Shown in pieces: positions 4,892 to 43,453 of a stretch of DNA of 64,000 nucleotides (position 1 is its first letter; each line of letters opens with the position of its first letter). A program made the translations under genes and the position numbers. The stretch spans positions 36,959 to 100,958 of the forward strand of contig JAADHV010000074.1 of NCBI GenBank assembly GCA_013151635.1, read 5' to 3'. The DNA comes from Deltaproteobacteria bacterium. Its GTDB lineage: Bacteria > Desulfobacterota > Desulfobacteria > Desulfobacterales > Desulfobacteraceae. A model generated the notes under the pieces. It had not been told where the DNA came from, did not search any database, and saw nothing but the letters and a program-made list of their open reading frames with translations.

Positions 4892-5770
4892 TCAGTCCTC
4901 AAAAACCTGGGTGCCTATGCCGGAATCGGTAAATAATTCAAGCAACACGGCATGGGGCAGTTTCCCGTTGATAATATGTGACTTTTTCACACCACTTTTC
5001 AATGCTTTTAATGCACATTCCACCTTGGGTATCATCCCGCCCTTAATATGTCCTTTTTCAATCATATCCTTAATAGTAGCAGCATCCATTGAGGAGACAA
5101 GTTTTTTATCCTTACCAAGTACACCATCCACATCTGTTACAAGTATAAGGCGTTCTGCACCAAGCGCGGATGCTATCTTTGATGCAACCACATCAGCATT
5201 GATATTATAGGTTTCACCATTCTTACCGACACCGACAGGTGCAATAATTGGAATAAACCCCCTGTCTGTGAGGGTATGAATGATATCCGGATTAATAGTT
5301 TCCACATCCCCCACCATGCCGGGATCTATAATTTCAGGGGGTTTATTTTCATCCTCGCGAAAGTAAATGGTCAATTTTTCTGCTGTAATCAGCATGCCGT
5401 CTTTTCCTGTTAACCCGACAGCCTTTCCCCCCTGGCGGTTTATCCTTGCAACAATATCCTTGTTGACCTTGCCGCCTAAAACCATTTCAACCACGTCCAT
5501 TATTTCATTATCCGTATATCTCATGCCCCGAATAAACTTAGACGTAATTCCCATGGAATCCAGGACTTTATTGATCTGGGGCCCGCCCCCGTGAACAACA
5601 ACAGGATTTACGCCAATATATTTTAACAATGTGATATCATTGGCAAAGTCCTTTTTCAAACTTTCATCCTTCATGGCATGTCCACCGTATTTCACAACAA
5701 TGGTCTTGCCGGAAAACCTTTTTATATAAGGCAGTGCCTCGATAAGGATGTCAGCAACATTTGTTTTCAT
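4892..5770 (-). CDS. argB: Acetylglutamate kinase
   Basis: [16 protein letters not shown] and YNINAD motifs. The start overlaps the hslU stop by 4 nt. Confidence 0.95.
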
Positions 5771-7140
5771 AGGATATACCTTGCTAGATCTTCATTTCCC
5801 ACAATGTTCATTAACTGCTCTTCTACAAAAGGGGCATCAATAACTATCTTTTTTTCTTCAATATCAGGTGCTGCAAAAAGAAAATCTTCCAAAAGCTTTT
5901 CCATCAGGGTATGGAGCCTTCTTGCACCGATGTTCTCTGTTGTTGAATTGACATCCACTGCAATGGAGGCAATTTTTCCAACAGCATCTTTTGTAAACTC
6001 AATTTCTATCCCTTCTGTCCTTAAAAGGGCAATGTATTGAAGTATGAGCGCATTTTTAGGTTCAGTCAGGATTCTTGTAAATTCACTGGCCCCCAGTGAA
6101 TTTAGTTCCACCCTTATGGGAAACCTTCCCTGAAGTTCAGGTATCAGGTCAGATGGTTTTGATACATGGAAAGCACCCGAAGCTATAAATAATATGTGGT
6201 CCGTCTTTACTATTCCATATTTGGTCGGCACTGAGCTTCCTTCAACAATGGGCAGAAGATCCCTTTGGACTCCTTCTTTTGAAACTTCCGGGCCCTGGCT
6301 TTTTTCTTTGCCCGCAATTTTATCGATTTCATCAATAAAAATTATCCCTGACTGCTCAACCATGGTGACGGCATCTGTCTTTATCTGGTCCATGTCAACA
6401 AGGTGAGAGGCTTCTTCCTGGGTCACAAGTTTCATGGCCTCTTTAATCTTTACCTTGCGGCGTTTGGTGCTTTTGGGCATCAGGTTCCCCAGCATATCTT
6501 TAACATTGATCCCCATTTCCTCTATACCTGTGTTGGAAAAAATTTCAACAATGGGAGAGGATTTATCTGCCACCTCAAGATCCACCTGCCTTGAATCCAG
6601 TTTCCCGGACCGCAGCATTTTTCTTAATTTCTCCCTTGTGGATGTTTTGGTATGGTTTTGGTCATCCTTTTTAACTGTCTCAACAATATCTATTTCATTT
6701 GAAATGACGACGCCACCCTGTGAAGACGGGGGCAGCAAAACATCCAGGATTCTTTCTTCTGCCGTTCTGGCCGCTTTTTCCTGAACTGCATCCTGCTGTC
6801 TTGCCTTTAAACTATTTACGGTAAGCTCCACAATATCCCTTATCATGGATTCAACATCCCTTCCCACGTATCCAACCTCAGTAAACTTTGAAGCTTCCAC
6901 CTTATAAAACGGGGAATCGGTTAAATTGGCAAGTCTTCTTGCGATCTCTGTCTTTCCAACACCTGTAGGCCCGATCAGGATAATATTTTTCGGGGCAATC
7001 TCCTCTTGAAGGTCTTTATCAAGCTGCCGCCTTCTCCACCTGTTTCTGAGGGCAATGGCAACAGATTTTTTTGCATCATCCTGGCCAATAATATATTTGT
7101 CCAGCTCTTTTACAATCTGTCCTGGTTTTAAATCTTTCAT
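5767..7140 (-). CDS. hslU: ATP-dependent protease ATPase subunit HslU
   Basis: [49 protein letters not shown], and a C-terminus ending DLARYIL. Confidence 0.97.
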
Positions 7141-7156
7141 TTTCTTTGTTTTCTTT

Positions 7157-7699
7157 CTATTTAAATTCTTCCACAGTCGTATAATGATTTGTATAAATAC
7201 ACAAATCAGCCGCTATCTTCATTGCTTTTTCCACAATCTCTCTTGGACCCAAATCAGTATTTTCAAGCAGGGCAATTGCGGCAGACTGTGCAGCAGTGCT
7301 GCCGGAACCTATACTTATGACCCCATCATCAGGCTCTATCACATCCCCGTTGCCGGATAATAAATAAGTGTTTTCCCTGTCTGCTGCAATCATCATTGCT
7401 TCAAGTCGTCTTAAATACTTATCCGTTCTCCAGTCACGGGCAAGCTCCACAGATGCCCTGGTCAAACTGCCGTTGTACCTTTCCAGTTTTTTTTCAAGTT
7501 TTTCAGACAGTGTCAAAGCATCTGCCGTGGCACCTGCAAACCCTGTAATAATCTTATCGTTATAAATTCTTCTGACCTTCTTTGCCTTATGTTTTGTGAC
7601 GATACTTCCCAACGTCACCTGCCCGTCTCCTGCTACAACAACAGAACCTTTATGTCTTAAAGCAAGAATAGTTGTCCCGTGAAATGTCTCATAACTCAT
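7157..7699 (-). CDS. hslV: ATP-dependent protease subunit HslV
   Basis: [18 protein letters not shown] places the catalytic Thr after the propeptide. I chose ATG 7699, which is preceded by AAAGGTGA. The longer ORF starting at 7744 would overlap xerC. Confidence 0.93.
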
Positions 7700-7718
7700 T
7701 TTTTTATCACCTTTATTG

Positions 7719-8621
7719 TCAGCTTCTTGGGTGTGCCTTGTCATATACCTTCATTAGCCTGTCCATACTCACATGGGTATAGACCTGGGTTGTGGAGAGA
7801 CTTGCATGGCCAAGGATCTCCTGAATTCCCCTTAAGTTCGCACCCGAATCCAGCATGTGCGTTGCAAAGGAGTGACGCAGGGTATGGGGTGAAACCGGCA
7901 GGTTCAACCCGCATTCCATTACTATTTTATCAAGAATCCGCCGGATGGACCGGGAACTTAGTCTTGAAAAATTTTTATTCACAAAAACCGGTATAAAATT
8001 TTCTTTCAAGACAATCCTGTACTCTTTTACAGCATTCAGGGCTCTTTTGCCAACCGGCACAAATCTCTCTTTGGAACCTTTCCCTAAGACTCTAATCATT
8101 TGGCTTTTAAAGTCAATGTCATCAATGTTCAGACCTTCTATTTCCGATACCCGCATGCCTGTAGAGTAAAATGTTTCAAACATTGCAAGATTCCTTTTAT
8201 TAAACCAGGTATCTGCTTTTATGGAATCTAACAGATAAAACAGGTCATCAATCCCCAAAAATCCGGGTATGGTTTTTTCAAGCTTTGGAAAAGGCACCAT
8301 ATCTGCCGGATTGACCCTGATCTGTCCTGATTTGACAAGATAATCAAAAAATGCTTTAAGAGAAGATAATTTTCTTGCTACGGTCCTCTTGGTAATTTTG
8401 GATCTCACAAGAAGGGCAAGATAATTCCTTACGGAATTTTTATCAATTGTGTTTACCTGCTGCAAAAATTTTTTTTGACATTCAATATCATTAATATCTT
8501 CATTTTCATCCTTTAAAAAAAAACGGATAAAACTTGAGACATCAGATCGATATGCCCGGCTTGTATGGGGAGAATACCCTTTTTCCGCCAGAAGTGTATC
8601 AATAAAAGCATCAAGAACCAT
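7719..8621 (-). CDS. xerC: Tyrosine recombinase XerC (chromosome dimer resolution)
   Basis: 300 aa. Catalytic residues are in ...[12 protein letters not shown]...GH...Y. The xerC-hslV-hslU synteny is the classical arrangement. Confidence 0.88.
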
Positions 8622-9225: not shown

Positions 9226-9230
9226 TTTCT

Positions 9231-9359
9231 ATAGTTCTCTTCAGAATAAAGATAATTACAATATTTTAACAAATGGGATGCAACAGGATTTTCCAGCCTT
9301 TGCCCATCTTCTTCAATAACTGACCAGTCCCGCAAATAAAACTTTTTTCCTTTCCGAAC
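9231..9359 (-). pseudogene. Remnant of the C-terminal part of a COG1373-type AAA+/DUF4143 ATPase
   Basis: Translation VRKGKKFYLRDWSVIEEDGQRLENPVASHLLKYCNYLYSEENY recalls, from memory, the DUF4143 signature (..Y.wDwS......g.rfENlVa.hLLK). It is bounded upstream by an in-frame TAG and has no N-terminal ATPase part. Confidence 0.35.
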
Positions 9360-9418
9360 CTATGCAATTTTTTGGACTGGTACGGCGGAATTATGTATAT
9401 TGTATATCTGTCTGACGT

Positions 9419-10621
9419 TTATTCAGCCCTTTTTTTAATGATCTGGTCCATCAGGGTATCGGCCACTTTGCTCTTGTCCATTAAAGGAATATCAAAGAAC
9501 GAACCGTCTTTGAAAAACAGTTTTACCTTGTTTGTATCTGCCTTGAACCCTGAATCAGAGGTCCCCACAAGGTTGGCTGCTATAATATCAAGGTTCTTTT
9601 TTTTCATTTTTAATAATGCATTTTTTTCAAGATCGTCTGTTTCTGCTGCAAATCCAACCAGGAACTGATCTTTTGTTTTCTTTTTGCCAATGAGCTTTAA
9701 GATATCAGTATTTTCAGTCATCAGAATGGAAAAATCTTTTGTACTATCTTTTTTCTTTATCTTATGTGTTTTTGGGTTGACAGGCTTATAATCAGCTACT
9801 GCCGCGACCTTGATAATAATATCTGCCGATTCAAGCCTGGCAAGCATTTGACTTGCCATCTCTTCGCAGGTCTCCACATCAATGCGCTCGACACCGGCTG
9901 GAGTTTTAAGGCCGACAGGGCCGGACACCAGCGTAACACAGCCCCCTCTTTTCTCTGCTGCCCCGGCAATGGCATACCCCATTTTACCGGATGAATGATT
10001 ACTGACAAACCGGACAGGATCAATAGCTTCCAAAGTTGGACCGGCTGAGATCAGAATTTTTTTGTTCCTTAAATCCTTTTTGGTTAACATTGCCTCAACC
10101 CTGTCAAAAATAAACCAGGGTTCAGGCAGCCTTCCTGCCCCTGTTGTTTTGCAGGCAAGAACACCCGAATCAGGATCAAGAATAAAAAATCCGTCCTTTT
10201 CAAGTATATCAATGTTTTCCTGCACCCTTATATTTTGATACATATAGGTATTCATGGAAGGGCAGATCATTACAGGACAGGTTACGGCAAGCAATGTGGT
10301 GGACAATGCATCATCTGCAATGCCATTGGCAAGCTTTGCAATGGTATTGGCAGTTGCAGGTGCGATAACGGCAGCATCCGCTCTTGCTGCAAGATCAATA
10401 TGCTTAACAGAAGATTTCGTATCAGAAAACAAATCCGACAGAACAGGGTTTTCAGATAAAACTTCAAAGGTTGTCTTACCGACAAATTTTAAAGCACTGC
10501 CCGTCATTATCACATTTACATTGGCACCGGTCTTTTTAAAAAACCTTAAAAGCTCAACCGCCTTGTACGCAGCGATCCCCCCTGTAACCCCAAGAAGAAT
10601 ATTTTTATTCTGCAGATGCAT
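9419..10621 (-). CDS. coaBC: Bifunctional phosphopantothenoylcysteine decarboxylase / phosphopantothenate-cysteine ligase
   Basis: 400 aa. Flavoprotein N-domain (GVTGGIAAYK) and CoaB domain (ISAGPTLEAIDPVRFVSNHSSGKMG). Confidence 0.95.
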   Translation of the reverse strand: MHLQNKNILLGVTGGIAAYKAVELLRFFKKTGANVNVIMTGSALKFVGKTTFEVLSENPVLSDLFSDTKSSVKHIDLAARADAAVIAPATANTIAKLANGIADDALSTTLLAVTCPVMICPSMNTYMYQNIRVQENIDILEKDGFFILDPDSGVLACKTTGAGRLPEPWFIFDRVEAMLTKKDLRNKKILISAGPTLEAIDPVRFVSNHSSGKMGYAIAGAAEKRGGCVTLVSGPVGLKTPAGVERIDVETCEEMASQMLARLESADIIIKVAAVADYKPVNPKTHKIKKKDSTKDFSILMTENTDILKLIGKKKTKDQFLVGFAAETDDLEKNALLKMKKKNLDIIAANLVGTSDSGFKADTNKVKLFFKDGSFFDIPLMDKSKVADTLMDQIIKKRAE

Positions 10622-11323: not shown

Positions 11324-13054
11324 TCAGTACTTACTATATTTGGTTGACACATATTTTGCAGGTTTTGATGTTGGAAATTTTTTTTTCAGCAGCATTGTGT
11401 ACTTTTTTATATTATCCTCGTCGTTCAAACTATCAAATATTTGAATAAGCTTTAAAAGGTCTTCAGGGTTTGGGCTTTTCTCATATGCAAGATTGTAACA
11501 TTTGATCTCAAGGCTTGTATACTTACTTTCGGCAAGATGTTTAACTTTAATTATCCGCCTTAATATTCCTGCTGCCTTATAACAATTCTGCCTTTCAGGA
11601 TTGATTTCAATAGCTTCCCTGATTAAGTCATATGCCTTATTATAATTAAAATTATTTGTTTCCTCCCGTGCAAGTATTAAAAGAGAAAAGTCCCTCCATT
11701 CGCTGTCCTTTGAATGCTCCACAGCCCTTTTAAAATATGGCAGCCCTTTTTTGCCACCAAGGACAGATCCGTATTTATATAATACTTTGCCATTGGTCGG
11801 ATTTTTTTTTAAAGTATCTGCCCAAAGGCTTTTCCTGTCCCGCCAGATATTGACTCTCTGGATCGAAGCAAAACAAAAAAATATCAATATTAAAAAAGCA
11901 ATTGTTTTAATTACCCTCACCTTTTCCGGAAACCTTAAACAATTTTTATAAAATAAATCCCCGGAAAACAGGCATATTAATGGAACCGATAGATAAAGAT
12001 ATCTCTCTGCAAACCTTGTCCATGCGACATCGGCAAGCGCGACGGGCAAAGCTGGCAAAAAAGAGATACACATCAATAATATCCAGAATGGATAATAAAA
12101 CTTTTTTTTTATGACGAGCACAGTACAAACAAGCACGATAAAAACAAAAACTACTGAATATAAAGGTAAATTTATCTGGGATATTGCAAAGTTCAATGGG
12201 AAAGGATAAATAAGTTTTTTCAAATAAAATGCGATCGCGGCTGGTAAAGTAAAAAAACCTGAAATCATCTGTGAACTTAGAGAGACTCCTTCCTTAAGGT
12301 GCAGTCCCTGGACAGGAACAGGATTAATCTGCTCCTGGAACTGAACTAAACCAAAACCTGCAAATCTTAAATACAGATATGCGAATAGAGGAACAGCAAG
12401 GATGCCGGCCCATGACAGAGATCTAACGGCTGAATATTTAACTCCCTTGCCTGGATAATTAAAAGCAAATTCACATAAAATAATTATTAGAAATAAACAA
12501 ATGGCATTTTCTTTGGCAAGGAGTCCTGAAAGAAAAAATATAGACACAAATACTGATTTGAATTTTAATCCGGAAAGATAAAAGAAAAATGCGATCAAAG
12601 AAAAAAAGGCAGAAAGAATATCCGTCCTTCCTGATATCCAGGCAACCGATTCAATTGTTAACGGGTTTAATACAAAACCGATTGCCAGAAAAAAAGAAAC
12701 CATTCTAAACCGGGGTTTGCCTTTAAAAAACGCAAGCGCAATAAAATAAAAGACAAGGGCATTAAGCAGATGAAAAATAATATTTGTCAGATGATACCCG
12801 GAAAATTCATACATCCATATCTTGCTGTCAACAATAAACGAAAGCATCAATAACGGACGGTAATATATTCCTAAACCATGTGGCCGGAATAAGTCCTTAA
12901 CCGGATAATGGTTATCAGGATTATTCAAATTCAGGATCATTGTTGTATCATCAAGATCAATTACATTTGAATTTAAGGTCGGATAAAAAACGGTCAGTGA
13001 TATCCCGATAATCAAAAGAACGGCAATATATTGCTTTTCAAAAAGGCTAATCAA
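11324..13054 (-). CDS. GT-C-fold membrane glycosyltransferase (PMT_2/TMTC-like) with C-terminal TPR repeats
   Basis: About 11 predicted TM segments. An acidic first-loop motif (VIDLDDTTMILNLNN), then YYRPLLMLSF, HLTNIIFHLLNALV and ESVAWISGRTD. The C-terminal ~170 aa are TPR-like. TTG start. Confidence 0.7.
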   Translation of the reverse strand: MISLFEKQYIAVLLIIGISLTVFYPTLNSNVIDLDDTTMILNLNNPDNHYPVKDLFRPHGLGIYYRPLLMLSFIVDSKIWMYEFSGYHLTNIIFHLLNALVFYFIALAFFKGKPRFRMVSFFLAIGFVLNPLTIESVAWISGRTDILSAFFSLIAFFFYLSGLKFKSVFVSIFFLSGLLAKENAICLFLIIILCEFAFNYPGKGVKYSAVRSLSWAGILAVPLFAYLYLRFAGFGLVQFQEQINPVPVQGLHLKEGVSLSSQMISGFFTLPAAIAFYLKKLIYPFPLNFAISQINLPLYSVVFVFIVLVCTVLVIKKKFYYPFWILLMCISFLPALPVALADVAWTRFAERYLYLSVPLICLFSGDLFYKNCLRFPEKVRVIKTIAFLILIFFCFASIQRVNIWRDRKSLWADTLKKNPTNGKVLYKYGSVLGGKKGLPYFKRAVEHSKDSEWRDFSLLILAREETNNFNYNKAYDLIREAIEINPERQNCYKAAGILRRIIKVKHLAESKYTSLEIKCYNLAYEKSPNPEDLLKLIQIFDSLNDEDNIKKYTMLLKKKFPTSKPAKYVSTKYSKY

Positions 13055-13093
13055 ATAATAAAATCCGTTAAATAGTGAAGGGGCATTTACTTG

Positions 13094-13948
13094 TTATTTC
13101 TTTTTTCTTTTCATAACCATATCGCTTGTTGTATATACACGGCCATTTTGCATAATGATAAACTTACCACCATATGGATCATCAGGAATTTTATCAATCA
13201 AACCATTTTTGACAAGTTCTTTCAAAGAAACAGGATATATATCAAATAACTTATGGTATTCGGAAACCTTGTTTTCAAGGTTTTCAAGGATTTCAAGTGT
13301 AGTAATCCTTAATTGAAATTCCTTTTTTGCACGCTTATCTGTTGTTTCTTTAAGCATTTCTTCTAAAAAAATTATGCCATCTCTGTGCTGGAATGAATAA
13401 ACCGCAAGTCTTGCTGCAAGATTTGCAAAATAGTAACGGCTTCCAGGGAGCCTTGATGCCTTCATTAAATATTGACTGCCTTTTTTAAAATCCTTTAAAA
13501 AATAAAAATAATTAAACCCAATGTAATAGGGTGGACGATAATCATCCGTTCTGTATTTTCTCGCTTTTTCAAGTAGAGTATTGGCACCTTCAGGATCGTT
13601 ATTGAAAGCAAGGAACATTTGTGCAAAATAATATGCATCCCAGTAATAGGGATCAAGGTCTGTTATGGTATCAAGGGCGGAAAATATGTATTTTGGATAT
13701 TTTGAATTATTTTTTTTCATGTCTTCAACTCTCCCGCCAAGGAAAGTCATGAATTTAAAAAGCAGGAAGTCTGAACAAAGACCCTCAAATTCAAGAGAGA
13801 GAGGCTTTATAAATTGTGATGGAAGAGCGGAGTCGATGAAATTATATTTCAGAAACAACTCTCGTTCATGTTTTAAATTTGGGAAAGAGACATTTAAATA
13901 AAAAAAGAGGATTAAAAACAGGCTTATAATCTTTACAGCCTTTGCCAT
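13094..13948 (-). CDS. Exported TPR-like protein, function unknown
   Basis: N-terminal signal/anchor, Tyr-rich helical repeats, and a C-terminal DDPYGGKFIIMQNGRVY motif. Its start overlaps the permease stop (TAATG). Confidence 0.6.
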   Translation of the reverse strand: MAKAVKIISLFLILFFYLNVSFPNLKHERELFLKYNFIDSALPSQFIKPLSLEFEGLCSDFLLFKFMTFLGGRVEDMKKNNSKYPKYIFSALDTITDLDPYYWDAYYFAQMFLAFNNDPEGANTLLEKARKYRTDDYRPPYYIGFNYFYFLKDFKKGSQYLMKASRLPGSRYYFANLAARLAVYSFQHRDGIIFLEEMLKETTDKRAKKEFQLRITTLEILENLENKVSEYHKLFDIYPVSLKELVKNGLIDKIPDDPYGGKFIIMQNGRVYTTSDMVMKRKKK

Positions 13949-14760
13949 TAATTAATCTCCCGTTTATTAAAAATCAAAGAAGCAAGAAACAAAAGCAATA
14001 TTGTATAGACAACACTGTAACTTAAAAGAGCTGCAGTGTGACTAAAAGGCATCAGTTTACCATGACTTGCAAGGGTCTTAATGTCAAATGCTGAAAAATT
14101 TGGAAAAACATATTGGGCGATATCGACTATCCATTGATTCATTTCTGACATTTGTTTACCCAAAGTTTCTTTTTTAAAGAACTCCATAACCTCTTCAATG
14201 GTTTGACCGGTAATATAAGTTGCCAATGAGAAAAGAAGGGTTAAAAACGAACTGGATGAAATCGAACTGAAAAAGATCACGACACTGTTCAGTACTGCAA
14301 ACATGAGCATTTCATAAAGATATGCCTGAAAATAACAACTCCAGGAAAAATCTTTAAAATAGATATTTGCATATAGGGATTTAACAAAATACATTATGCC
14401 GGCACTGAAAACCAAGAGGAAAAAAAGCGCCACAAAAACAATCAGCATCAGCCCTAAGTATTTGCCCAGAATATACTGGGTCCTTGAAATGGGCTTTGAC
14501 AGAACACAATAAATTGTTCTCTTGTCAATATCCTTAGCCATTAAATTGATATTAACAAAAAATGTTAACAATAAACCGGCAAAAGCGATAGTGGATAGAT
14601 TCAAATCAACCAGAACCTTTCCTAGTTCATGTCCGAACAGGCCGGTAAACAGAATTGTGGCAAAAAGCATGATCAAGGCAATAATAAAAATACCCGCCAG
14701 GGCACGATCCCGTATGCCTTCCTTAAATGTGAGAACGGCCAGTGCAGTTATTTTATTCAT
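13948..14760 (-). CDS. ABC-2 type transporter permease
   Basis: Six hydrophobic segments with a NosY/ABC-2-like layout. ATG 14760 overlaps the ATPase stop. Confidence 0.8.
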   Translation of the reverse strand: MNKITALAVLTFKEGIRDRALAGIFIIALIMLFATILFTGLFGHELGKVLVDLNLSTIAFAGLLLTFFVNINLMAKDIDKRTIYCVLSKPISRTQYILGKYLGLMLIVFVALFFLLVFSAGIMYFVKSLYANIYFKDFSWSCYFQAYLYEMLMFAVLNSVVIFFSSISSSSFLTLLFSLATYITGQTIEEVMEFFKKETLGKQMSEMNQWIVDIAQYVFPNFSAFDIKTLASHGKLMPFSHTAALLSYSVVYTILLLFLASLIFNKREIN

Positions 14761-15529
14761 AGTCCGCTTCCCTTCCAATGGTATCTAAAAAAATCTTTTC
14801 AAGAATATTGGTTTCTATTCCATCTGCCTTTGCCATTTGAACATCCAACTTTGCCATGAGTTCTTTTCTGGAAAGGATCTTTTTTAAATACCCCTTATCC
14901 ATTATGGCCATGCGATCGCACAGCCGTTCAACATCATTGAGGATATGGGAACAAAAAAGGATGGTTTTCCCCTTGTTCTTCAAATCAAGAACCATGTCCA
15001 CAACCAGTTTCCTGCCTAAAGGATCCAGGCCGGACATGGGCTCATCAAATATTATAAGATCAGGATCGTGAACCAGTGCGAAACAGATCCCGGCCCTCTG
15101 CATCATACCCTTGGAATATGTTCTCAAGCGCCGTTTCCTGGCATGCTCAAGGTTCATGGTTTTTAAAAGTGTGTCAATGCGATGTTTAATATCCTGCTTT
15201 GCCATGCCGGAAGTGGTTGCGCTGAATACCATAAGATCTTCAGCTGATAAATGATCATAATAATAAGGATTTTCAGGGAGGTATCCAATTTGAAGCCTGG
15301 CTTCAGGATCAGAAGGGGATTTCTCACCTATAAAAATAGTTCCGGAATCATGCCTGATAAATCCCATAAGCATTTTCAGCAAAGTACTCTTTCCGGCCCC
15401 GTTAGGGCCAACAATCCCAAGAATTTCCCCTGTTTTTACCGAAAGGTTCAAATCTGCAACAGCGCGAACCTTTTTCCGGGTAAAGCTTGAAATAAATGTT
15501 TTATTCACCTTATTAAAGATAACTTCCAT
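14753..15529 (-). CDS. ABC transporter ATP-binding protein
   Basis: Walker A GPNGAGKST, signature YSKGMMQR, Walker B LIIFDEP. Confidence 0.92.
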   Translation of the reverse strand: MEVIFNKVNKTFISSFTRKKVRAVADLNLSVKTGEILGIVGPNGAGKSTLLKMLMGFIRHDSGTIFIGEKSPSDPEARLQIGYLPENPYYYDHLSAEDLMVFSATTSGMAKQDIKHRIDTLLKTMNLEHARKRRLRTYSKGMMQRAGICFALVHDPDLIIFDEPMSGLDPLGRKLVVDMVLDLKNKGKTILFCSHILNDVERLCDRMAIMDKGYLKKILSRKELMAKLDVQMAKADGIETNILEKIFLDTIGREADYE

Positions 15530-15557
15530 GATCACCCGTTTCTTTCCGGTTCAGAAT

Positions 15558-15600
15558 ATAATAAAATAGGATAAATTACTGACCGGCAGTAATTTATCCT
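15558..15600 (-). terminator. Rho-independent terminator/attenuator downstream of the pilin pair
   Basis: Perfect 14-bp stem (AGGATAAATTACTG / CAGTAATTTATCCT, 15568-15581 and 15587-15600) with a 5-nt loop, followed on the minus strand by ATTTTATTATAT. Confidence 0.75.
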
Positions 15601-15628
15601 AATGATTTATTAAAAAGCTATCAGAAAA

Positions 15629-16060
15629 TTATTGCGATGACCCACCTCTCAATAACCAGCCTGTGGCAGTTTTAAAAGCAACACCGGTAAGATAGCCATC
15701 AACAGTGCCTGTAGAAATTGCAGTACCGTTAGCGGCTCTCTGGTATACACCATTGTCATCTACATCCACAGGATCCATGGAGGCTCTTACGGCCACATAA
15801 ATGGCCACTGCTTTATCCGCTTTTCTACTGGCCGCACAGGCTGCCATGATCTGGCCGGCTGCGCCTGCATACCCACCTGCAGTGGCCGCACCGGAATAAT
15901 TAGCATAACTGTTGGCAGATATTGCAATGCCGCTGACACCAGGGCCCAGGCCGGTAGAATCATCCAGAGTGATGGAACCACTTGATGAACCTGATTGAGC
16001 CGCGTAAAGAGGCGATGCGATTAAGGCTATCAAACATATGGCATAAAAAATCTTTTTCAT
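15629..16060 (-). CDS. Secreted Gly/Ala/Ser-rich protein encoded directly after the short pilin; candidate PilA-C-like partner
   Basis: Sec signal MKKIFYAICLIALIASPLYA|AQ. AGGAG RBS. It lies 56 nt downstream of the pilin stop. No class III prepilin motif. Confidence 0.65.
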   Translation of the reverse strand: MKKIFYAICLIALIASPLYAAQSGSSSGSITLDDSTGLGPGVSGIAISANSYANYSGAATAGGYAGAAGQIMAACAASRKADKAVAIYVAVRASMDPVDVDDNGVYQRAANGTAISTGTVDGYLTGVAFKTATGWLLRGGSSQ

Positions 16061-16116
16061 TTTATAACTCCTATTATTAAGGTTTAAAAGTGTTTTTTTA
16101 AAATCATACTCTTAAA

Positions 16117-16335
16117 TTAAAACGGATAATGATCATATTCTGCATAATACCCGCCTGCCTCATTTTTGATGTTTCTGGCATCGCTGATAGCTTGAGTGTT
16201 AAATGCTCTTGCACGGTACTTGGTAAACTGTGGAATTGCAATCGCTGCCAGAATACCAATGATTGCAATAACGATCATCAGCTCGATCAGGGTGAAACCC
16301 TTCTGGTTCCTTCTTTTTTTTAGCCAATTAAACAT
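16117..16335 (-). CDS. pilA: Truncated type IVa pilin (PilA-N / e-pilin-like), 72-aa precursor and 59-aa mature
   Basis: Class III signal KKRRNQKG|[24 protein letters not shown] with Glu5. The protein ends after the N-terminal helix plus an aromatic-rich tail ([12 protein letters not shown]). Strong GGAGGTGA RBS. Confidence 0.9.
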
Positions 16336-16408
16336 TCGTCACCTCCATTGTTTATGTTATTTGTTTTTTTGATTTATCTTAAAAATCATCTTTGAAAATT
16401 CTTATTCT

Positions 16409-16423
16409 TCAAGAAGAGTGCCA
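16409..16423 (-). promoter_or_regulatory. Sigma-54 (-24/-12) type promoter upstream of pilA
   Basis: The minus strand reads TGGCAC-TCTTC-TTGA with correct GG/-12 spacing (TTGA instead of TTGC). It lies about 75-88 nt upstream of the ATG. Confidence 0.6.
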
Positions 16424-16684: not shown

Positions 16685-17596
16685 ATGGTCATAATTTTTG
16701 AAAGTTTAGAAACCTGCATGAACCGCAATAAAAAAAGTGTTAAATCAGATTTAAAGCAATTGATTATTTTGCTGCGCCCTTACCAGTGGATTAAAAACCT
16801 TTTATTATTTGCACCCTTATTTTTTTCCGGCAATCTCATTAACCATTCAATTTATATTACCTGCACAGGGGTTTTTGTCTTCAGCCTGGTATCAGGTCTT
16901 GGATATATCTTGAATGACTGGATTGACAAGGATAATGACAGATTTCATCCAAACAAAAAACAACGTCCGTTTTGTACAGGCGATATAACCGGACAAAAAG
17001 CGCTTCTTTTTTCAGGAGCTGTTTTTCTTTTAATCATACTTTGTCTCGCATGGTTTGATTTGCCTGTTAAATTTATTTATTACCTTTGTGCGTATGCATT
17101 GCTCACGGCAAATTACAGCCTCTATTTAAAACAAATTGTCATAGTTGAAATATATATGGTTGCATTGGGATTTGTTTTACGTGTCCTGGCAGGAGGTGCG
17201 GTTTGCAATGTTAAAATTTCACACTGGTTATTTCTGACGGTATTTTTCATTGCCATGATGATTTCCATTGCAAAGCGGGTGAACGAACTAAAGGAGCTTG
17301 GCAGAAAAGAGGCTGTCATGCACAGGAAAAGCCAGGTTGGATATTCATTGAATTATTTAAACAATATGCTTTGGGCCTGCGGCAGCATCACCCTGGTTGT
17401 TTACTCCCTTTACGCTGTCGAGCACGGCGAACTGGTCATGTATTCCGTTATTCCGGCAGCTTATGGAATCTTTCGTTTTATTTATCTTACAGACCTTGGA
17501 AAAGGAAGTGATCCGATAAAAACACTTTTTTCAGACGGGCAGCTCTTACTGACAACATTGATTTTTTTATTATTTTTAGCTTTGGTAATCTATTAG
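16685..17596 (+). CDS. UbiA-family prenyltransferase, decaprenyl-phosphate 5-phosphoribosyltransferase (DPPR synthase)-like
   Basis: YQWIKNLLLFAPLFFSG plus the motif NDWIDKDNDRFHPNKKQRP (NDxxDxxxDRxHPxKxxRP), and about 8 TM segments. An alternative start is ATG 16718. Confidence 0.8.
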   Translation: MVIIFESLETCMNRNKKSVKSDLKQLIILLRPYQWIKNLLLFAPLFFSGNLINHSIYITCTGVFVFSLVSGLGYILNDWIDKDNDRFHPNKKQRPFCTGDITGQKALLFSGAVFLLIILCLAWFDLPVKFIYYLCAYALLTANYSLYLKQIVIVEIYMVALGFVLRVLAGGAVCNVKISHWLFLTVFFIAMMISIAKRVNELKELGRKEAVMHRKSQVGYSLNYLNNMLWACGSITLVVYSLYAVEHGELVMYSVIPAAYGIFRFIYLTDLGKGSDPIKTLFSDGQLLLTTLIFLLFLALVIY

Positions 17597-17672
17597 ATTA
17601 TATGAAACCTTTTGACATCTTAAATTGTTCAAATACATTTAAATTATATTTATTCATTGTTATTTAGAATTC

Positions 17673-18746
17673 ATGATGAACACCATTAAAGCCATAAAAC
17701 AAATTGATCGTATCACCGGTCCTGTTTTATTAAAATTATTTCCCAAAGCATTTAAAGCTGACCTTAAAGCCGGACCGTTAAAAAAAATCCTGGTTATAAG
17801 ACCAGGGGGAATGGGAGATGCCCTGTTACTGCTCCCGATTCTGAAAGAGATCGCCTCCTCATTTCATGTGACAATTGACATCCTATGTGAACCAAGAAAT
17901 AAAAGTGTGTTTAAAAGCGTTATATTTATCAACCGGATATTTTCATACAGGGATCTTAAATCCATGCTGTCTGTCTTTCAAAAAAAATATGATGCAGTTT
18001 TTGACACAGAGCAATCGCACTTTTTGTCCGCAATCATTACAAGGCTTTTGCGGGCAGATATCAAGATCGGCTTTAAAACAAACGGCCGTGAAAAAATGTA
18101 CAGTAAAAGTATAAATTACACCCATCAATGCTATGAAGCAAAGATGTTCTGGAAACTTTTTTCAAGTCTGTATTTGGTTAATAACAATTTTCATTTCAAC
18201 TTTCCTTATTTTAAACAGCATGACCATTATCAGAATCCAAATTTCAAAAGAAAACAAGCTGTCTGTCTTTTCCCGGGTGCAACAATTGATGAACGTTTGT
18301 GGCCTGAGGAAAGATGGGCAAAGGTAATTGACTGGCTTGCAGACCATGGGTGGCATTCCGTCCTTCTGGGCAGCAAAAAAGAAAAAGGACAATGCAAAAA
18401 GATTATTTCCATGTGCAAAACCAATAAAATTATTAACATGTGTTCCAGATTATCCATTCTCCAAACAAGCTGGTTTTTCAAAAGAGCTTCATTATTAATA
18501 ACAACTGATTCAGGAATGCTGCACCTTGGGGTATTGAGCGGATTGCCGACAATTTCTTTGTTTGGCTCCGGGATCAAAGCCAAATGGGCACCAACAGGCA
18601 AACAACATATCACCATATATAAAAACCTTGAATGCAGTCCCTGCACTAAATTTGGCACGACTCCGCCATGCCCTAACAATTACAGATGCATGGTGCAAAT
18701 CACCCCGGAAGAAGTGATTGCCGTTGCTCATGCACACTTATCTTAA
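17673..18746 (+). CDS. Glycosyltransferase family 9 (heptosyltransferase-like)
   Basis: ILVIRPGGMGDALLLLPILKEI, DSGMLHLG, and a C-terminal CSPC...C...CM motif. Confidence 0.85.
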   Translation: MMNTIKAIKQIDRITGPVLLKLFPKAFKADLKAGPLKKILVIRPGGMGDALLLLPILKEIASSFHVTIDILCEPRNKSVFKSVIFINRIFSYRDLKSMLSVFQKKYDAVFDTEQSHFLSAIITRLLRADIKIGFKTNGREKMYSKSINYTHQCYEAKMFWKLFSSLYLVNNNFHFNFPYFKQHDHYQNPNFKRKQAVCLFPGATIDERLWPEERWAKVIDWLADHGWHSVLLGSKKEKGQCKKIISMCKTNKIINMCSRLSILQTSWFFKRASLLITTDSGMLHLGVLSGLPTISLFGSGIKAKWAPTGKQHITIYKNLECSPCTKFGTTPPCPNNYRCMVQITPEEVIAVAHAHLS

Positions 18747-24362: not shown

Positions 24363-24377
24363 TGGCACTTTTTTTGC
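24363..24377 (+). promoter_or_regulatory. Sigma-54 promoter of the minor-pilin operon
   Basis: Exact TGGCAC-TTTTT-TTGC match to the -24/-12 consensus, about 140 nt upstream of the first pilin-like gene. Confidence 0.75.
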
Positions 24378-24517: not shown

Positions 24518-25075
24518 ATGTTTAATAAAAACACAAAAAAGAAAATAAATCCAGGTTTCACGTTAATAGAGCTTATGATTGTAATTGCCATGATGGGTAT
24601 CCTGTCTGCCGTGGCAGTACCGAGATTTCAAGCATGGCTGCCGGTATACAGGTTAAAGTCTGCGGTCAGCGATCTTCAGTCAAATATGCAGAAAGCAAGA
24701 AGCCTGGCCATTAAAGAAAATTCTTCGATTCAGCTCAGATTTGACTATACGAATTCACCCGGATTTTATTATTTTGATACAACAAAGGATGGTGCATATA
24801 CGGCAGGTGAATTCAGAGTTGATCTTTCATCATATAACAGCGGTGTGGCTTTTGGTACAGGAAATGCCACGGCTAAATGGGATGGTACTGCTTTCAGCGT
24901 TCCACCAACCGCTGCAATCGGATTTGGAACAAGGGGAACTTCAAATACGGCAACGGTTTATCTCCAAAATGAAAATCAAAATGTATGCTATGCAATCACT
25001 ACCAGTATTGCAGGCACAGCCAGGATAAGACAATACAATGGAAGTCTTCCGTTTAATACAGGCAATTGGAATTAG
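24518..25075 (+). CDS. GspH/FimT-family minor (pseudo)pilin
   Basis: Prepilin motif NPG|[24 protein letters not shown], followed by the GspH-like AVSDLQSNMQKARSLAI. Confidence 0.82.
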   Translation: MFNKNTKKKINPGFTLIELMIVIAMMGILSAVAVPRFQAWLPVYRLKSAVSDLQSNMQKARSLAIKENSSIQLRFDYTNSPGFYYFDTTKDGAYTAGEFRVDLSSYNSGVAFGTGNATAKWDGTAFSVPPTAAIGFGTRGTSNTATVYLQNENQNVCYAITTSIAGTARIRQYNGSLPFNTGNWN

Positions 25076-25078
25076 GCC

Positions 25079-25969
25079 ATGATGCATATAACTTTAAATT
25101 CAAACAAATCCAAAGGTTTTACAATAATTGAACTCCTTATTGCCATCTCAATTTCAAGCATAGTAATGGTTGCCCTTTATCAGACATTCAACTCACAGCA
25201 GAAAAGCTATCTGATCCAGGAGGATGTTGCTACAATGCAGCAGGGATTGCGGGCATCAATGCTCCTTTTAGCCAATGATATCAGGATGGCGGGATATGAC
25301 AGCCAGTTAAGCGGAAATTTTGGGATTACGGATATCCGTCCGAGAGATATTTCCAATGTTGTGGATACCGGGCTGACAGGACACAGTTCCATTACTCTGA
25401 CAGGCGATTTCGGTAATGGCGCTTTCAGTGATAACGGTGTTCTTGATACTGACGAAACCATTCAGTACTCGTTATATGATTTAGCTCCTGCTGACGGAAA
25501 TACTGACCTGGCAAGAGACAGTGGCGGCGGGCGGCAGCTTTTAGCTGAAAATATTCTGGGTTTTGGCCTTGCATTTGCGTTTGACGATGATCTTGATGGT
25601 GAACTCGATACTTATACCGCAGTGAATCCCGGTGCAACAAAGCAAATTATCTGGGCCATTGATTCAAATGGAGACAATGCCCTTGACACCAATCTTGACA
25701 CCAATCTTGACGGGGTAATCGATGTTAATGACAGCCCGGGCGGGCCTGGAAGCAATGGAATCATTGTGGGCAGCGCACTTGCATCAAATGTTGCCATCAG
25801 TAATATAAGGGCTGTCAGAATCTGGGTACTTGCACAAACCGATAAACCGGAACCAAGCTTTAATAACACCAACACCTATATTATCGGGAAATATGTCATT
25901 ACACCAAACAATAGCAGAAGAATGAGACTTTTAAGTAAAACTATTAAATGCCGGAATCTGGGATTATGA
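25079..25969 (+). CDS. pilW: PilW-like minor pilin
   Basis: KSKG|FTIIELLIAISISSIVMVALYQTF, LRASMLLLANDIRMAGY and a C-terminal ...RRMRLLSKTIKCRNLG, all typical of PilW. Asp-rich inserts are present. Confidence 0.8.
   Translation: MMHITLNSNKSKGFTIIELLIAISISSIVMVALYQTFNSQQKSYLIQEDVATMQQGLRASMLLLANDIRMAGYDSQLSGNFGITDIRPRDISNVVDTGLTGHSSITLTGDFGNGAFSDNGVLDTDETIQYSLYDLAPADGNTDLARDSGGGRQLLAENILGFGLAFAFDDDLDGELDTYTAVNPGATKQIIWAIDSNGDNALDTNLDTNLDGVIDVNDSPGGPGSNGIIVGSALASNVAISNIRAVRIWVLAQTDKPEPSFNNTNTYIIGKYVITPNNSRRMRLLSKTIKCRNLGL
25682..25711 (+). repeat. 12-bp in-frame tandem repeat (2.5 copies) inside pilW
   Basis: CTTGACACCAAT x2 followed by CTTGAC, encoding LDTNLDTNLD. Confidence 0.9.
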
Positions 25970-26406
25970 AAACCTTTATATTAAAACCAAAAGCAAAGTA
26001 TCAAGATGGATTCGGTTTAATAGAAGTCCTTATTGCCATGGCTGTTTTATCAATTGGTTTATTAAGCATTGCAGCCCTGCAGACTTCGGCAATTCGCGGG
26101 AATGCAAAATCAAACAATTTGACTGAAAGAACGACAGCTGCATCCAATCATATTGAATATCTTTTAAATCTGCCCTTTACTGACCCTGATTTAACAGCCG
26201 GGGCTCATAACCCTGAAGGTGACGGCATTGATAATGATGGCGATGGTGTCACAGACGAAGCAGATGATGATGGTGAATCCGGATATACTGTCACCTGGAA
26301 TGTGACAGACAATACTTCAAATGAAAAAACCATTACCCTGACTCTTACCGGAACCGATTACGGCCTGACAAGAACCATAACCATGAACACTGTAAGGGTT
26401 AGATAA
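25966..26406 (+). CDS. pilV: PilV-like minor pilin
   Basis: QDG|FGLIEVLIAMAVLSIGLLSIAALQTSAIRGN. ATG 25966 overlaps the pilW stop (ATGA). Confidence 0.8.
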   Translation: MKTFILKPKAKYQDGFGLIEVLIAMAVLSIGLLSIAALQTSAIRGNAKSNNLTERTTAASNHIEYLLNLPFTDPDLTAGAHNPEGDGIDNDGDGVTDEADDDGESGYTVTWNVTDNTSNEKTITLTLTGTDYGLTRTITMNTVRVR

Positions 26407-31806: not shown

Positions 31807-33204
31807 TCAACCTGAATAATCTGTTTTATCAAGGCGGTAGCGCATGGATCTTAAGCTTAAGTTCAAATAATCCGCCGCCTTGCTTTTATTGCCACCGGCA
31901 ATCTCCATGGCTTTTTTAAGATAGGCCCTCTCAATGGTTGACAGGACTTCATCAAGGTCAACACCCTGCTCAACGTCATCAAGGTCGAATCTCTGGCCCC
32001 TGATGCCTTCAATCCATCTTCTTTTCTTATGCATGGAAATAGTAAGGCTCTCGGGCAGTATAATATTGGTGGATGAAAGGGCCACGCTTCGTTCGATCAA
32101 GTTTTCAAGCTCTCTTACATTGCCGGGAAAACTATACTTATTTAAAAAATCAATGGCATAGGAAGAAAGCTTTACAATATCTTTTCCCATTTTCTCGGAA
32201 TACTTTTCAGCAAAATGCTTGGATAAAAGCTCTACATCGCCTTTCCTGTCCCTTAATGGCGGGACCTTGATAGGGATAACGTTTAGGCGGAAAAAAAGAT
32301 CTTCCCTGAAATTTCCTTCAATGACTTCCTGTTCAAGTTTTTTATTGGTGGCGGAAATAATCCTGACATCCACATTAATTTCTTTTGTCCCCCCCACGGG
32401 TTTAAAAGAAGTCTCCTGTACGGCCCGCAAAAGCTTGACCTGCAAAATAGGAGAAAGCTCACCTATCTCATCTAAAAAAATTGTCCCGTGATTGGCAGCT
32501 TCAAAAAGCCCTTTCTTGTCATTGACAGCTCCTGTAAAAGAGCCTTTGACATGACCGAAAAATTCACTTTCTATTAAACTATCCGGAATGCCACCGCAAT
32601 TTACAACCACAAAGGGATTTTTCATCCGGTCTGAATTTTCATGGATGGCTCTTGCAATCAATTCTTTTCCGGTTCCGCTTTCGCCGGTAATCAAAACATT
32701 GGTTTTTGTGGGACCAATCTGCTCCACCCTTTTATAAATGGCCAGCATCCCAGGGCTTCTTCCGATGATCCTGTTAAAATGGATACTGTCCCGCAGCTCT
32801 GATGAAGTTGTCTCTCTTTCCTGGTCAAGGGTTTTCAGTTCAAGAGCCCGTTGGATGGTCTGTTTTAATTCAATATTGTCAAAGGGTTTAGGTACAAAAT
32901 CATAGGCACCCTCGTTCATGGCCTCGACTGCTATTTCTGTTGTGGAATAAGCAGATATCATGACGACAATAGTATCATGATTCTGTTTTTTAGCCTCTTT
33001 TAAGACTTCCAGGCCTGTAATATCGCCCAGCCTGATATCAGACAGGATCAGATCATAATCATTTTTTTGAATCATCTTTACTGCAAGTTTACCGTTTTTG
33101 GCTTTTGACACCTTATATCCTTCTTTGGATAATAAAACATCAAGAAACTCACGCATGCTTGTTTCATCATCGACCACAAGAATACTATGTATTTGATTCA
33201 TCAT
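31807..33204 (-). CDS. Sigma-54-dependent response regulator (NtrC/PilR-type enhancer-binding protein)
   Basis: REC domain (LVVDDE...LILSDIRL), AAA+ domain with GESGTGKE and GSFTGA (a GAFTGA variant), and a Fis-type HTH (KSKAADYLNLSLRSMRYRL). Confidence 0.92.
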   Translation of the reverse strand: MMNQIHSILVVDDETSMREFLDVLLSKEGYKVSKAKNGKLAVKMIQKNDYDLILSDIRLGDITGLEVLKEAKKQNHDTIVVMISAYSTTEIAVEAMNEGAYDFVPKPFDNIELKQTIQRALELKTLDQERETTSSELRDSIHFNRIIGRSPGMLAIYKRVEQIGPTKTNVLITGESGTGKELIARAIHENSDRMKNPFVVVNCGGIPDSLIESEFFGHVKGSFTGAVNDKKGLFEAANHGTIFLDEIGELSPILQVKLLRAVQETSFKPVGGTKEINVDVRIISATNKKLEQEVIEGNFREDLFFRLNVIPIKVPPLRDRKGDVELLSKHFAEKYSEKMGKDIVKLSSYAIDFLNKYSFPGNVRELENLIERSVALSSTNIILPESLTISMHKKRRWIEGIRGQRFDLDDVEQGVDLDEVLSTIERAYLKKAMEIAGGNKSKAADYLNLSLRSMRYRLDKTDYSG

Positions 33205-42010: not shown

Positions 42011-43453
42011 ATGGAACTTGGATTACAACAAAGTCTAATATTGACTCAGCAACTTGTCATGACGCCTCAGCTTCAGCAGGCAATCAAACTCCTGCAATTA
42101 TCCCGCATTGAGCTTGCAGAGATGATTCAACAGGAAATGGAACAAAACCCCGCACTGGAAGAAGCAGGGACAGAAGAGCTGTCTGATAAAAAAATTACTG
42201 CACAGGAAAGTGAAACAGGTTCCCCTGAAAAAGAAACCCCTGTAAAAGAAGTCACCATTGAAGAAAAAGTAAGGACAGACACGGACTGGGAAAATTATAT
42301 TAATGAATATAATTCAACAGGAAGGGTCTATATGGAATCAGAAAACATCCAGGCGCCCAATTTTGAAGCATTTACTTCAGACAAAAAGACCCTGGATGAC
42401 CATCTTCAGTGGCAGTTAATGCTATACGGCTTAAGCAGGGAAGAAGAAAAAACAGGCCATATCATTATCGGCAATCTGAACAGGGACGGTTATCTTTGCT
42501 CTGATATCGAAGAGATTGCTCAAAGTTCCGGCCAGGACATAGAACTTGTTGAACATGTTCTTTCAATACTGCAGACTTTTGATCCACCCGGTATCTGCGC
42601 AAGAAATCTTTGCGAGACCTTGCTTATCCAGGTTAAACAGCTCGGAATTGATAATCCTGTTATAGATGAAATCATAAAAAACCATTTAAAAAATCTTGAA
42701 AACAGGAATACAAAAAAAATTGCAAAAGCATTGAAAATATCATTGGATGACGTAAGAGCCGCAGTAAAAATCATCCAATGCCTTGAGCCCAAACCAGGCC
42801 GCAAGTTTTCAACGGATGAGCCTGCCTATATCACTCCGGACATTTATGTTTACAAACAGGAAGACGGTTTCAAAATTGTCATGAATGATGATGGCCTTCC
42901 TAAACTCAAAATAAACCGGTTTTACATGAATGCTATTGCCAATGGCCAAAAGATATCAAAAGATGCCAAAAATTACCTTAATGAAAAAATGCAGTCTGCT
43001 TCCTGGCTTATTAAAAGTATTCATCAACGCCAGAAAACAATTTACCTTGTCATGGAAAGTATTTTAAAATTCCAGAAAGAATTTTTTGAAAAGGGTATCG
43101 CATATCTAAGGCCGCTGATTCTAAAGGACATTGCCGAAGATATTGAAATGCATGAATCCACGATTAGCCGTGTAACAACCAATAAATATGCCTATACCCC
43201 CCAGGGACTTTTTGAATTGAAATACTTTTTTAACTCTTCAATCCAGCGAACCGGCGGTGAATCAATGGCATCAGCAAGTGTAAAGGAAAAAATAAGACTG
43301 TTGATAGGAAAAGAAGATCCTGTAAACCCGTTTAGTGATGAAAAAATAGCGAGTATCCTTCAGGATTCAAATATTCAGATTGCCAGAAGAACGGTGGCAA
43401 AATACAGGAAAGTATTAAACATACTTCCTTCTAATAAACGTAAACAGCTCTAG
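42011..43453 (+). CDS. rpoN: RNA polymerase sigma-54 factor
   Basis: N-terminal LQLSRIELAEMIQQEMEQNPALE, a Glu-rich region II, HESTISRVT and the RpoN box ARRTVAKYR. Confidence 0.97.
   Translation: MELGLQQSLILTQQLVMTPQLQQAIKLLQLSRIELAEMIQQEMEQNPALEEAGTEELSDKKITAQESETGSPEKETPVKEVTIEEKVRTDTDWENYINEYNSTGRVYMESENIQAPNFEAFTSDKKTLDDHLQWQLMLYGLSREEEKTGHIIIGNLNRDGYLCSDIEEIAQSSGQDIELVEHVLSILQTFDPPGICARNLCETLLIQVKQLGIDNPVIDEIIKNHLKNLENRNTKKIAKALKISLDDVRAAVKIIQCLEPKPGRKFSTDEPAYITPDIYVYKQEDGFKIVMNDDGLPKLKINRFYMNAIANGQKISKDAKNYLNEKMQSASWLIKSIHQRQKTIYLVMESILKFQKEFFEKGIAYLRPLILKDIAEDIEMHESTISRVTTNKYAYTPQGLFELKYFFNSSIQRTGGESMASASVKEKIRLLIGKEDPVNPFSDEKIASILQDSNIQIARRTVAKYRKVLNILPSNKRKQL

Follow-up and report, generated by a model that had tools for sequence, protein, structure and literature searches.

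The closest described counterpart of the locus reported here is the split pilin of Geobacter sulfurreducens, PilA-N and PilA-C (GSU1496/GSU1497; PDB 6VK9, 2M7G and 7TGG, with 9EGP holding closely related Geopilin domain 1 and 2 chains). In the solved Geobacter filament, a PilA-N core is surrounded by PilA-C, which makes up the outer surface (PMC10710030, PMC10191384), and the pair has been central to a long dispute over conductive nanowires versus a secretion pseudopilus. Short pilins are also on record outside Geobacter: Shu et al. 2016 (PMC5174107) reported truncated pilins in many sulfate reducers, assigned Desulfobacula toluolica Tol2 and Desulfobacter postgatei 2ac9 to a pilin cluster with truncated members, and by PSI-BLAST recovered GSU1497-like proteins in Geobacter alone. 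The Desulfobacula truncated pilin is a predicted electrically conductive pilin (e-pilin; Holmes et al. 2016, as cited in Bray et al., bioRxiv 10.1101/668343). Here we analyzed 64,000 nucleotides from a Deltaproteobacteria bacterium of the Desulfobacteraceae (GCA_013151635.1, contig JAADHV010000074.1, positions 36,959 to 100,958; hereafter the window), in which a truncated pilin gene is followed directly by a gene for a secreted partner protein. We conclude that at this locus the major subunit of a type IVa pilus is probably split between two polypeptides, a helix and a separately secreted head, and that the pair is the positional orthologue, and very probably a remote homologue, of Geobacter pilA-N/pilA-C.

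The pilin open reading frame (ORF) combines a 13-aa leader with a 59-aa mature peptide, and its cleavage site reads KG↓FTLIEL. The mature chain carries Phe1, Glu5 and Pro22, and it has Phe or Tyr at positions 1, 24, 27, 32, 50, 51, 54, 57 and 59 (9/59, 15.3%), with His56 in addition. An earlier note on this DNA, written from the letters alone, had described a 72-aa ORF with the G↓FTLIEL signal, Glu5, a 59-aa mature peptide and these nine aromatic residues; our reading of the ORF and its match to Pfam N_methyl PF07963 (48.1 bits, cut-off 21.2, E = 6.5e-13) confirm each of these points, and TIGR02532 matches as well (42 bits, cut-off 16.3). The ORF ends 59 residues into the mature protein, leaving no globular domain and no head in the same polypeptide. 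The likeness to PilA-N drawn in that note also held, in that the three best PDB matches are Geobacter 'Geopilin domain 1' chains (9egp_A, 84.5 bits, 2.7e-23; 7tgg_A, 77.5 bits, 4.1e-21; 2m7g/6vk9, 1.1e-16, with 63.5 bits for 2m7g), and the full-length type IVa pilins of Myxococcus, Neisseria and Pseudomonas rank next at about 1e-10 to 1e-11. The other identity considered for the 72-aa ORF, a type II secretion pseudopilin, is contradicted by the far lower rank of a GspG chain (26.6 bits, 5.7e-05), by a score of 42.4 bits against the GspG family TIGR01710 that falls below its cut-off of 88.85, and by gene context, with no gsp genes near the pilin among the 58 large ORFs of the window that were scanned against Pfam (about nine further non-overlapping ORFs lie outside that scan). 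We therefore classify the window pilin, from its sequence, as a type IVa major pilin of the PilA-N type with a class III signal.

The resemblance to Geobacter PilA-N extends to a helix-only chain of about 60 aa, the same leader type, the residues Phe1, Glu5 and Pro22, and aromatics at 1, 24, 27, 32, 50/51 and 57, although the mature window pilin is identical to Geobacter-type pilins at only 33–36 of 59 positions. The host differs too, being a Desulfobacula-like sulfate reducer. Like the full-length type IVa pilins (M. xanthus PilA 8TJ2, Neisseria PilE, P. aeruginosa PAK), it has a class III signal and an alpha1 match over the whole mature chain, and minor pilins and PilY1 accompany the locus; unlike them, it has no D-region, and the head would reside in a separate, Sec-exported protein. 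Tad/Flp (type IVc) pilins share the short helix-only major subunit but differ in their long leaders, in the absence of Phe1 and Pro22 and in dispensing with a second chain (PMC10710030), whereas the window pilin has all the type IVa hallmarks. Its nearest relatives are in Desulfobacula: the protein (GenBank NOX33899.1) falls in the same 90%-identity cluster as the D. phenolica pilin WP_092237916.1, with 55/59 mature residues identical, and the D. toluolica pilin is 83% identical. All of the best 120 pilin homologue clusters are 68–78 aa long, and those that are named come from Desulfobacula toluolica, Desulfobacula sp. and an uncultured Desulfobacter. The window pilin is thus of the same protein family as the truncated pilins of D. 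phenolica, D. toluolica Tol2 and Desulfobacter postgatei 2ac9, although published accounts of the Desulfobacula and Desulfobacter proteins treat the pilin without a partner gene. With more than 100 homologue clusters of 68–78 aa, and with the gene pair present at every related locus read, the combination of pilin and partner is not a chance feature. The statement in the earlier note that truncated e-pilin genes are largely restricted to Desulfuromonadales/Geobacterales is contradicted by Shu et al. 2016 (PMC5174107) and by bioRxiv 10.1101/668343.

The partner begins 56 nt past the pilin stop codon. By eye, its N-terminus is of the Sec type, with MKK followed by a hydrophobic stretch (MKKIFYAICLIALIASPLYA↓AQ), giving a signal peptide of about 20 aa (16001-16060) and a Gly/Ala/Ser-rich mature domain of about 123 aa. 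Neither Pfam nor NCBIfam recognises the protein, and it lacks a prepilin motif, so that the separate Sec-secreted ORF without a prepilin motif that had been read from the letters is confirmed. The protein is identical to hypothetical protein GXP56_09200 of a 'Deltaproteobacteria bacterium' metagenome-assembled genome (MAG) and 81% identical to a Desulfobacula phenolica protein. A word-based search returned only four relatives; a full HMMER profile search, run over 1.84 billion representatives, returned 31, nearly all of them 112–166 aa long. AlphaFold2, run with a 32-sequence alignment, models the partner as an all-beta protein of seven strands with a short C-terminal helix (predicted local distance difference test score (pLDDT) 85, predicted template modelling score (pTM) 0.73). 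Chain-level PDB matches obtained with phmmer and a four-sequence profile (CFA/I fimbrial subunit repeats, ricin B, beta-lactamase) were dismissed as chance.

What ties this ORF to the pilin is its behavior in relatives, for which we label genomic loci with L numbers (L001-L006, L016, L017, L086, L087, L091, L104-L107) and protein clusters with P numbers. Stand-alone partner homologues were read at seven other distinct genomic sites, among them D. phenolica, two further Desulfobacula-type loci, the locus of the P0155 cluster, the P0149 locus (whose protein is named from a Desulfobulbaceae MAG) and the metagenomic contig L107. At all seven, the homologue lies directly 3' of a 69–75-aa N_methyl protein, and next in line are genes for an ABC ATPase, an ABC-2 permease and a protein of about 280–290 aa. 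Pilus genes adjoin the pair at two sites: a FimU-PilW-PilV-PilX-PilY1 operon is divergently adjacent to it in L107, and a PilY1 homologue stands immediately 5' of it in L106. The related metagenomic locus L003 also encodes a second 69-aa truncated pilin (9228-9437; 8565-8774 in L004) beyond the ABC block, with no partner gene of its own alongside; its mature part of 59 aa contains 10 aromatics and matches the window pilin at 35/59 positions.

Two of the 31 relatives, both metagenomic, are fusions in which a prepilin helix runs into a partner-type domain: P0144 (193 aa; profile E = 3.6e-15; helix 48/59 identical to the window pilin) and P0146 (166 aa; 2.2e-12; 40/59), with no signal peptide between helix and head. 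Although P0144 lies on a short contig, its fusion is unlikely to be an assembly artefact, because no remnant of a signal peptide is present and because a second, different fused sequence exists. An AlphaFold2 model of P0144 consists of a 52-residue helix and a five-stranded beta domain (pLDDT 81, pTM 0.53). Judged from their sequences, both read as ordinary-looking full-length pilins with the partner domain as head. The downstream ORF is tied to the pilin by three independent lines: adjacency, fusion and synteny with Geobacter.

The third of these lines comes from L087, a G. sulfurreducens-type locus with the order pilT-pilC-pilS-pilR-pilA-N(73 aa)-117-aa protein-267-285-ABC ATPase-582-UbiA-GT2. 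BLASTP between the two loci pairs the pilins (7e-19), the ABC ATPases (1e-64), the permeases (5e-18), the 284/285-aa proteins (3e-44), the 576/582-aa proteins (2e-43) and the UbiA proteins (2e-55), and leaves the partner/PilA-C pair alone without a match. The window also resembles the Geobacter locus in its sigma-54-type promoter motif and in its PilR orthologue (48% identity to L087 PilR over 457 aa, E = 1e-150). Because five flanking genes (ABC ATPase, ABC-2 permease, the ~285-aa and ~580-aa genes and UbiA) are common to both, the loci are orthologous, and by gene order the partner is placed as the positional orthologue of PilA-C. Like PilA-C, it is encoded on the same strand directly downstream of the pilin and has a Sec-type signal and a Gly/Ser/Thr/Ala-rich, predicted all-beta mature part that ends in a GW motif.

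Homology between the two head families is harder to demonstrate. Our PilA-C set comprised 15 sequences, eleven of them complete, from four Geobacteraceae loci, the 9egp_B fragment and ten metagenome-scan sequences, with the near-duplicate L102 left out. When mature regions were compared profile to profile (hhalign), the two families aligned over 84 collinear columns with a score of 19.1 (P = 0.011; 1/150 column shuffles scored as high), pairing DDNxVYQ with DSTsIYq and the C-terminal GW with GW. A bridge is provided by P0155, a cluster in the same locus position whose mature part scores 25.0 bits against the partner hidden Markov model (HMM) and 26.3 bits against the PilA-C HMM, whereas 2,000 composition-matched shuffles peak at 12.8 and 10.3 bits, respectively. 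Because P0155 bridges both families, the case for remote homology is strengthened, and we regard it as quite likely, though not proven. The earlier note had likened the downstream ORF to PilA-C; invariant adjacency, fusions and synteny link that ORF to the pilin, and its direct similarity to PilA-C is weak.

Several elements of expression are also recognizable (Table 1). Scanning the window for TGGCAC-N5-TTG[AC] gave two matches against 0.34 expected, one upstream of the pilin and the other ahead of a minor-pilin operon. D. phenolica L001 and Desulfobacula L005 keep TGGCA-N6-TTG at the corresponding place in the alignment, within spacer DNA that is otherwise divergent. Between pilin and partner, the spacer contains no terminator-like site. 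After the partner, the terminator stem (15567-15601) is followed by UUUUAUUAUA; the hairpin folds at -19.3 kcal/mol (z = -4.5), and 0/200 shuffles fold as well. Of the sigma-54-type promoter and 14-bp-stem terminator that had been proposed to frame the pair, both elements are present, with the correction that the stem is 15 bp long.

Table 1. Coordinates of the split-pilin pair, its expression signals, neighbouring genes in the window and fused relatives.
Feature	Position	Strand	Basis or remark
Truncated type IVa prepilin (PilA-N type), 72 aa	16117..16335	-	ORF; Pfam, TIGRFAM and PDB-chain matches
Partner, PilA-C-like head-domain protein (putative), 143 aa	15629..16060	-	ORF, relatives, profiles, AlphaFold2
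Sigma-54-type -24/-12 element TGGCACTCTTCTTGA (TGGCAC-N5-TTGA)	16409..16423	-	~74 nt 5' of pilin ATG
Shine-Dalgarno GGAGGTG of pilin gene	16340..16346	-	Read from sequence; kept in L001 and L005
Intergenic spacer, 56 nt	16061..16116	-	AGGAG (16068-16072) 7 nt before partner ATG
Intrinsic terminator, 15-bp perfect stem, 5-nt loop, U-rich tail	15555..15601	-	Fold energy and shuffles
ABC ATPase	14753-15535	-	Conserved downstream block
ABC-2 permease	13948-14778	-	Conserved downstream block
284-aa protein	13094-13948	-	Conserved downstream block
576-aa polytopic membrane protein, weak tetratricopeptide-repeat (TPR)-like C-terminal match	11324-13054	-	Conserved downstream block
UbiA-family prenyltransferase, divergent	16685-17596	+	Best NCBIfam match decaprenyl-phosphate phosphoribosyltransferase, 177 bits, below cut-off
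UbiA and GT9 glycosyltransferase pair	16685..18746	+	Same pair upstream in L001 and L005
Second sigma-54-type motif	24363-24377	+	Precedes minor-pilin operon
Minor-pilin operon: FimU/GspH-like, PilW, 152-aa prepilin, PilX, PilY1 (1507 aa)	24518-31446	+	Domain matches
PilR-type sigma-54 enhancer-binding response regulator	31807..33204	-	Domains and BLASTP
rpoN (sigma-54) in lptC-lptA-lptB-rpoN-hpf-rapZ cluster	42011..43453	+	Gene cluster
P0144 fused pilin	L086 1021-1602		1.7-kb contig
P0146 fused pilin	L091 1860-2360		Gene context differs, no ABC block

Taken as a two-polypeptide pilin, the locus could work as follows. The 72-aa prepilin would be inserted in the inner membrane, where prepilin peptidase would cleave it and N-methylate the product after Gly-1, so that the pilin would supply the alpha1 helix alone (59 aa). 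The partner, as the globular head, would be exported by the Sec route and lose its signal peptide of about 20 aa. We infer that in the periplasm it binds the C-terminal third of the helix, which is amphipathic and rich in Tyr, and that the type IVa machinery co-polymerises the heterodimer, joined by the minor pilins and PilY1, whose genes lie 8 kb away. Such a filament would agree with the solved one of Geobacter. The two genes would be co-transcribed from the sigma-54 promoter, presumably activated by the PilR orthologue of the window, and most transcription would stop at the hairpin before the ABC-transporter genes.

Several observations weigh against this reading. PilB, PilT, PilC, PilD and PilMNOPQ are all missing from the Pfam-scanned ORFs of the window. 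Unlike in Geobacter, pilT, pilC, pilS and pilR do not lie upstream of the pilin; the divergent UbiA gene and GT9 stand where pilS-pilR would be, and the ABC ATPase comes first in the downstream block. In the -12 element, TTGA takes the place of the consensus TTGC. Searches of PDB chains that included 9egp_B (Geopilin domain 2) connected the partner to GSU1497-type proteins neither with phmmer nor with a four-sequence HMMER profile, so that the connection needs an intermediate, and a first hhalign run of the full-length partner against PilA-C alignments aligned the signal peptides alone. The linker between helix and head in the P0144 model has a pLDDT of only 53–56, and because of this low confidence the model does not predict a docking geometry. 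Foldseek found no PDB match with E < 1 for the partner model and nothing significant for the P0144 model; because even the fused pilin recovered no pilin, the test had no power, and we treat its result as uninformative rather than negative.

The strongest competing explanation is that the Desulfobacterales pair arose by fission of a P0144-like full-length pilin independently of Geobacter, which would make the partner a mere analogue of PilA-C. Each head subfamily does have its own fused counterpart. P0144 and P0146 carry a partner-type head, and a Geobacteraceae MAG (L016, 5998-6612) has, in the place of pilA after pilS-pilR and ahead of the same ABC block, a full-length pilin of about 204 aa whose C-terminal domain scores 15 bits against the PilA-C HMM and 2 bits against the partner HMM and has weak PDB matches to OAA lectins alone. 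Both subfamilies thus occur fused and split, and direct similarity between partner and PilA-C is marginal. Set against this are the scores of P0155 with both HMMs, well above composition-matched shuffles, and the five shared flanking genes, which make the loci orthologous. Pilin heads also diverge fast; even the 117-aa PilA-C of L087 reaches the 'Geopilin domain 2' chain 9egp_B at an E-value of only 7.5e-05. We therefore consider independent fission unlikely. A contig scan with the pilin matched mostly generic type IV pilins, since FTLIEL and LAAIAIPQ are near-universal patterns. Among the matches listed, L016 was the only useful locus, and neither a Desulfobacula nor a G. sulfurreducens locus was represented. 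L017, from a Desulfobacterales MAG, carries an unrelated full-length pilin and was rejected as a related locus.

Less probable still is a headless conductive e-pilus, in which the aromatic-rich pilin would polymerise alone and the partner would be only a periplasmic chaperone or stabiliser (the 'Spc' view of GSU1497). The published sequence criteria for e-pilins ask for an aromatic content of 9.8% or more, no aromatic-free gap longer than 22 aa, and aromatic residues at 1, 24, 27, 50/51 and 32/57 (bioRxiv 10.1101/668343). With 15.3% Phe plus Tyr, a longest aromatic-free gap of 17 aa (33-49) and all required positions filled, the window pilin falls within them, which is a test of sequence that carries no information on conductivity. 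That source cites an aromatic figure that equals 10/59 if His56 is counted, fitting a protein near-identical to the window pilin. Whether Geobacter assembles filaments of PilA only is still debated (PMC9207759), and adjacency and fusion would equally fit a binding partner that is released before assembly. However, P0144 and P0146 carry the partner domain in cis like an ordinary pilin head, and both chains are present in the solved Geobacter filament (PMC10710030), with PDB entries 6vk9 and 9egp listing both Geopilin domains 1 and 2. The aromatic tail is also kept in full-length relatives, which argues for an interface: GGYYxEWDxYP is common to the window pilin and P0144 (GGYYSEWDEYP), and L016 has the similar LYAEWQHYG. 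Because the tail is conserved in fused and full-length proteins, we read it as more likely a putative head-contact surface than an adaptation of a headless wire, and the suggestion in the earlier note that a Tyr-dense tail bears on the e-pili debate loses most of its force. Desulfobacula is, moreover, a sulfate reducer, and we know of no report of extracellular electron transfer by this genus.

The least probable of the alternatives is a periplasmic pseudopilus, a short non-surface filament that would drive export of a cargo maybe coupled to the ABC exporter/glycosyltransferase block; a secretion pseudopilus role was reportedly proposed for the Geobacter split pilin by Gu et al. in 2021. This explanation concerns the site of action of the filament and not the identity of the two genes. 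In its favor, the pair is kept beside the ABC ATPase, ABC-2 permease, 576-aa protein, UbiA and a glycosyltransferase in Geobacter, Desulfobacula-type and Desulfobulbaceae-type loci, and the ABC ATPase near Geobacter pilA is xapD (GSU1501), which has been called a sugar ABC transporter and which cells require to grow on electrodes (PMC5585712). However, a complete set of minor pilins and PilY1, the latter typical of surface type IVa pili, lies in the window or adjacent to the pair in relatives, the pilin is far from GspG, and no secretion substrate is evident.

Among the neighbours of the gene pair, the conserved downstream block spans 11324..15535 (-), and the same block lies 3' of the pair in L001-L006 and L104-L107. 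A counterpart of the block lies at 9264-11848 in L087. The 576-aa protein of this block appears by eye to be polytopic over its N-terminal two-thirds, and its C-terminus gives a type_IV_pilW match of 15 bits (E = 0.012). In Pseudomonas aeruginosa, group IV pilins are glycosylated by the TfpW pathway. We presume a resemblance between the 576-aa TPR-tailed protein together with UbiA and TfpW (a GT-C enzyme with TPR) together with the D-arabinofuranose-donor pathway, and it is a possibility that the ABC/UbiA block modifies the Ser/Thr-rich head protein.

Other observations concern the wider window. The 1507-aa PilY1 has two Golvesin_C domains (E = 9.6e-43) ahead of its beta-propeller, an unusual addition. 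The PilR orthologue has no adjacent PilS; it is flanked by the end of pilY1 and by pyrC/pyrB and lies about 15 kb from the pilin. An AAA+ ATPase with ClpB/ClpX-like domains, two radical-SAM/SPASM proteins and hemB (ALAD) stand in a row at 48287-53278 (+) and may form a gene cluster for alternative haem biosynthesis of the kind present in other sulfate reducers. At 5767-8621 (-), an HslU-like AAA ATPase, an HslV-like proteasome-type subunit and a XerC/D-type tyrosine recombinase, also in a row, look like housekeeping genes.

The gain over earlier work is incremental, the short pilin having been annotated and discussed in the literature already. In the literature we searched, we found no paper naming the Desulfobacula downstream gene as a PilA-C counterpart, nor one describing the fused relatives or the shared flanking block, and the partner family and fused forms appear to be undescribed. 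The natural fused forms could be used for modelling the interface between helix and head. Desulfobacula-type and Desulfobulbaceae-type loci with the same design and neighbours also provide comparative material for the nanowire/pseudopilus dispute.

More speculatively, and in our view less likely than not, two-gene major pilins may be a widespread and old architecture of the Desulfobacterota, spanning the Desulfobacula and Desulfobacter types, the Desulfobulbaceae type and the Geobacter group, rather than a Geobacter peculiarity tied to extracellular electron transfer. On this tentative reading, the head diverges fast, the pair is linked to the ABC/UbiA module, and fission or fusion has occurred at least twice, since fused as well as split forms exist in each head subfamily. 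The module of ABC exporter, TPR-tailed protein and UbiA could glycosylate the Ser/Thr-rich head or export something onto it. By this comparison, both the split and the aromatic tail appear to be general structural traits of this pilin lineage rather than adaptations for conduction. If the tentative reading is true in sulfate reducers without extracellular electron transfer, the primary role of the split pilin would be neither conduction nor the secretion of cytochrome nanowires.

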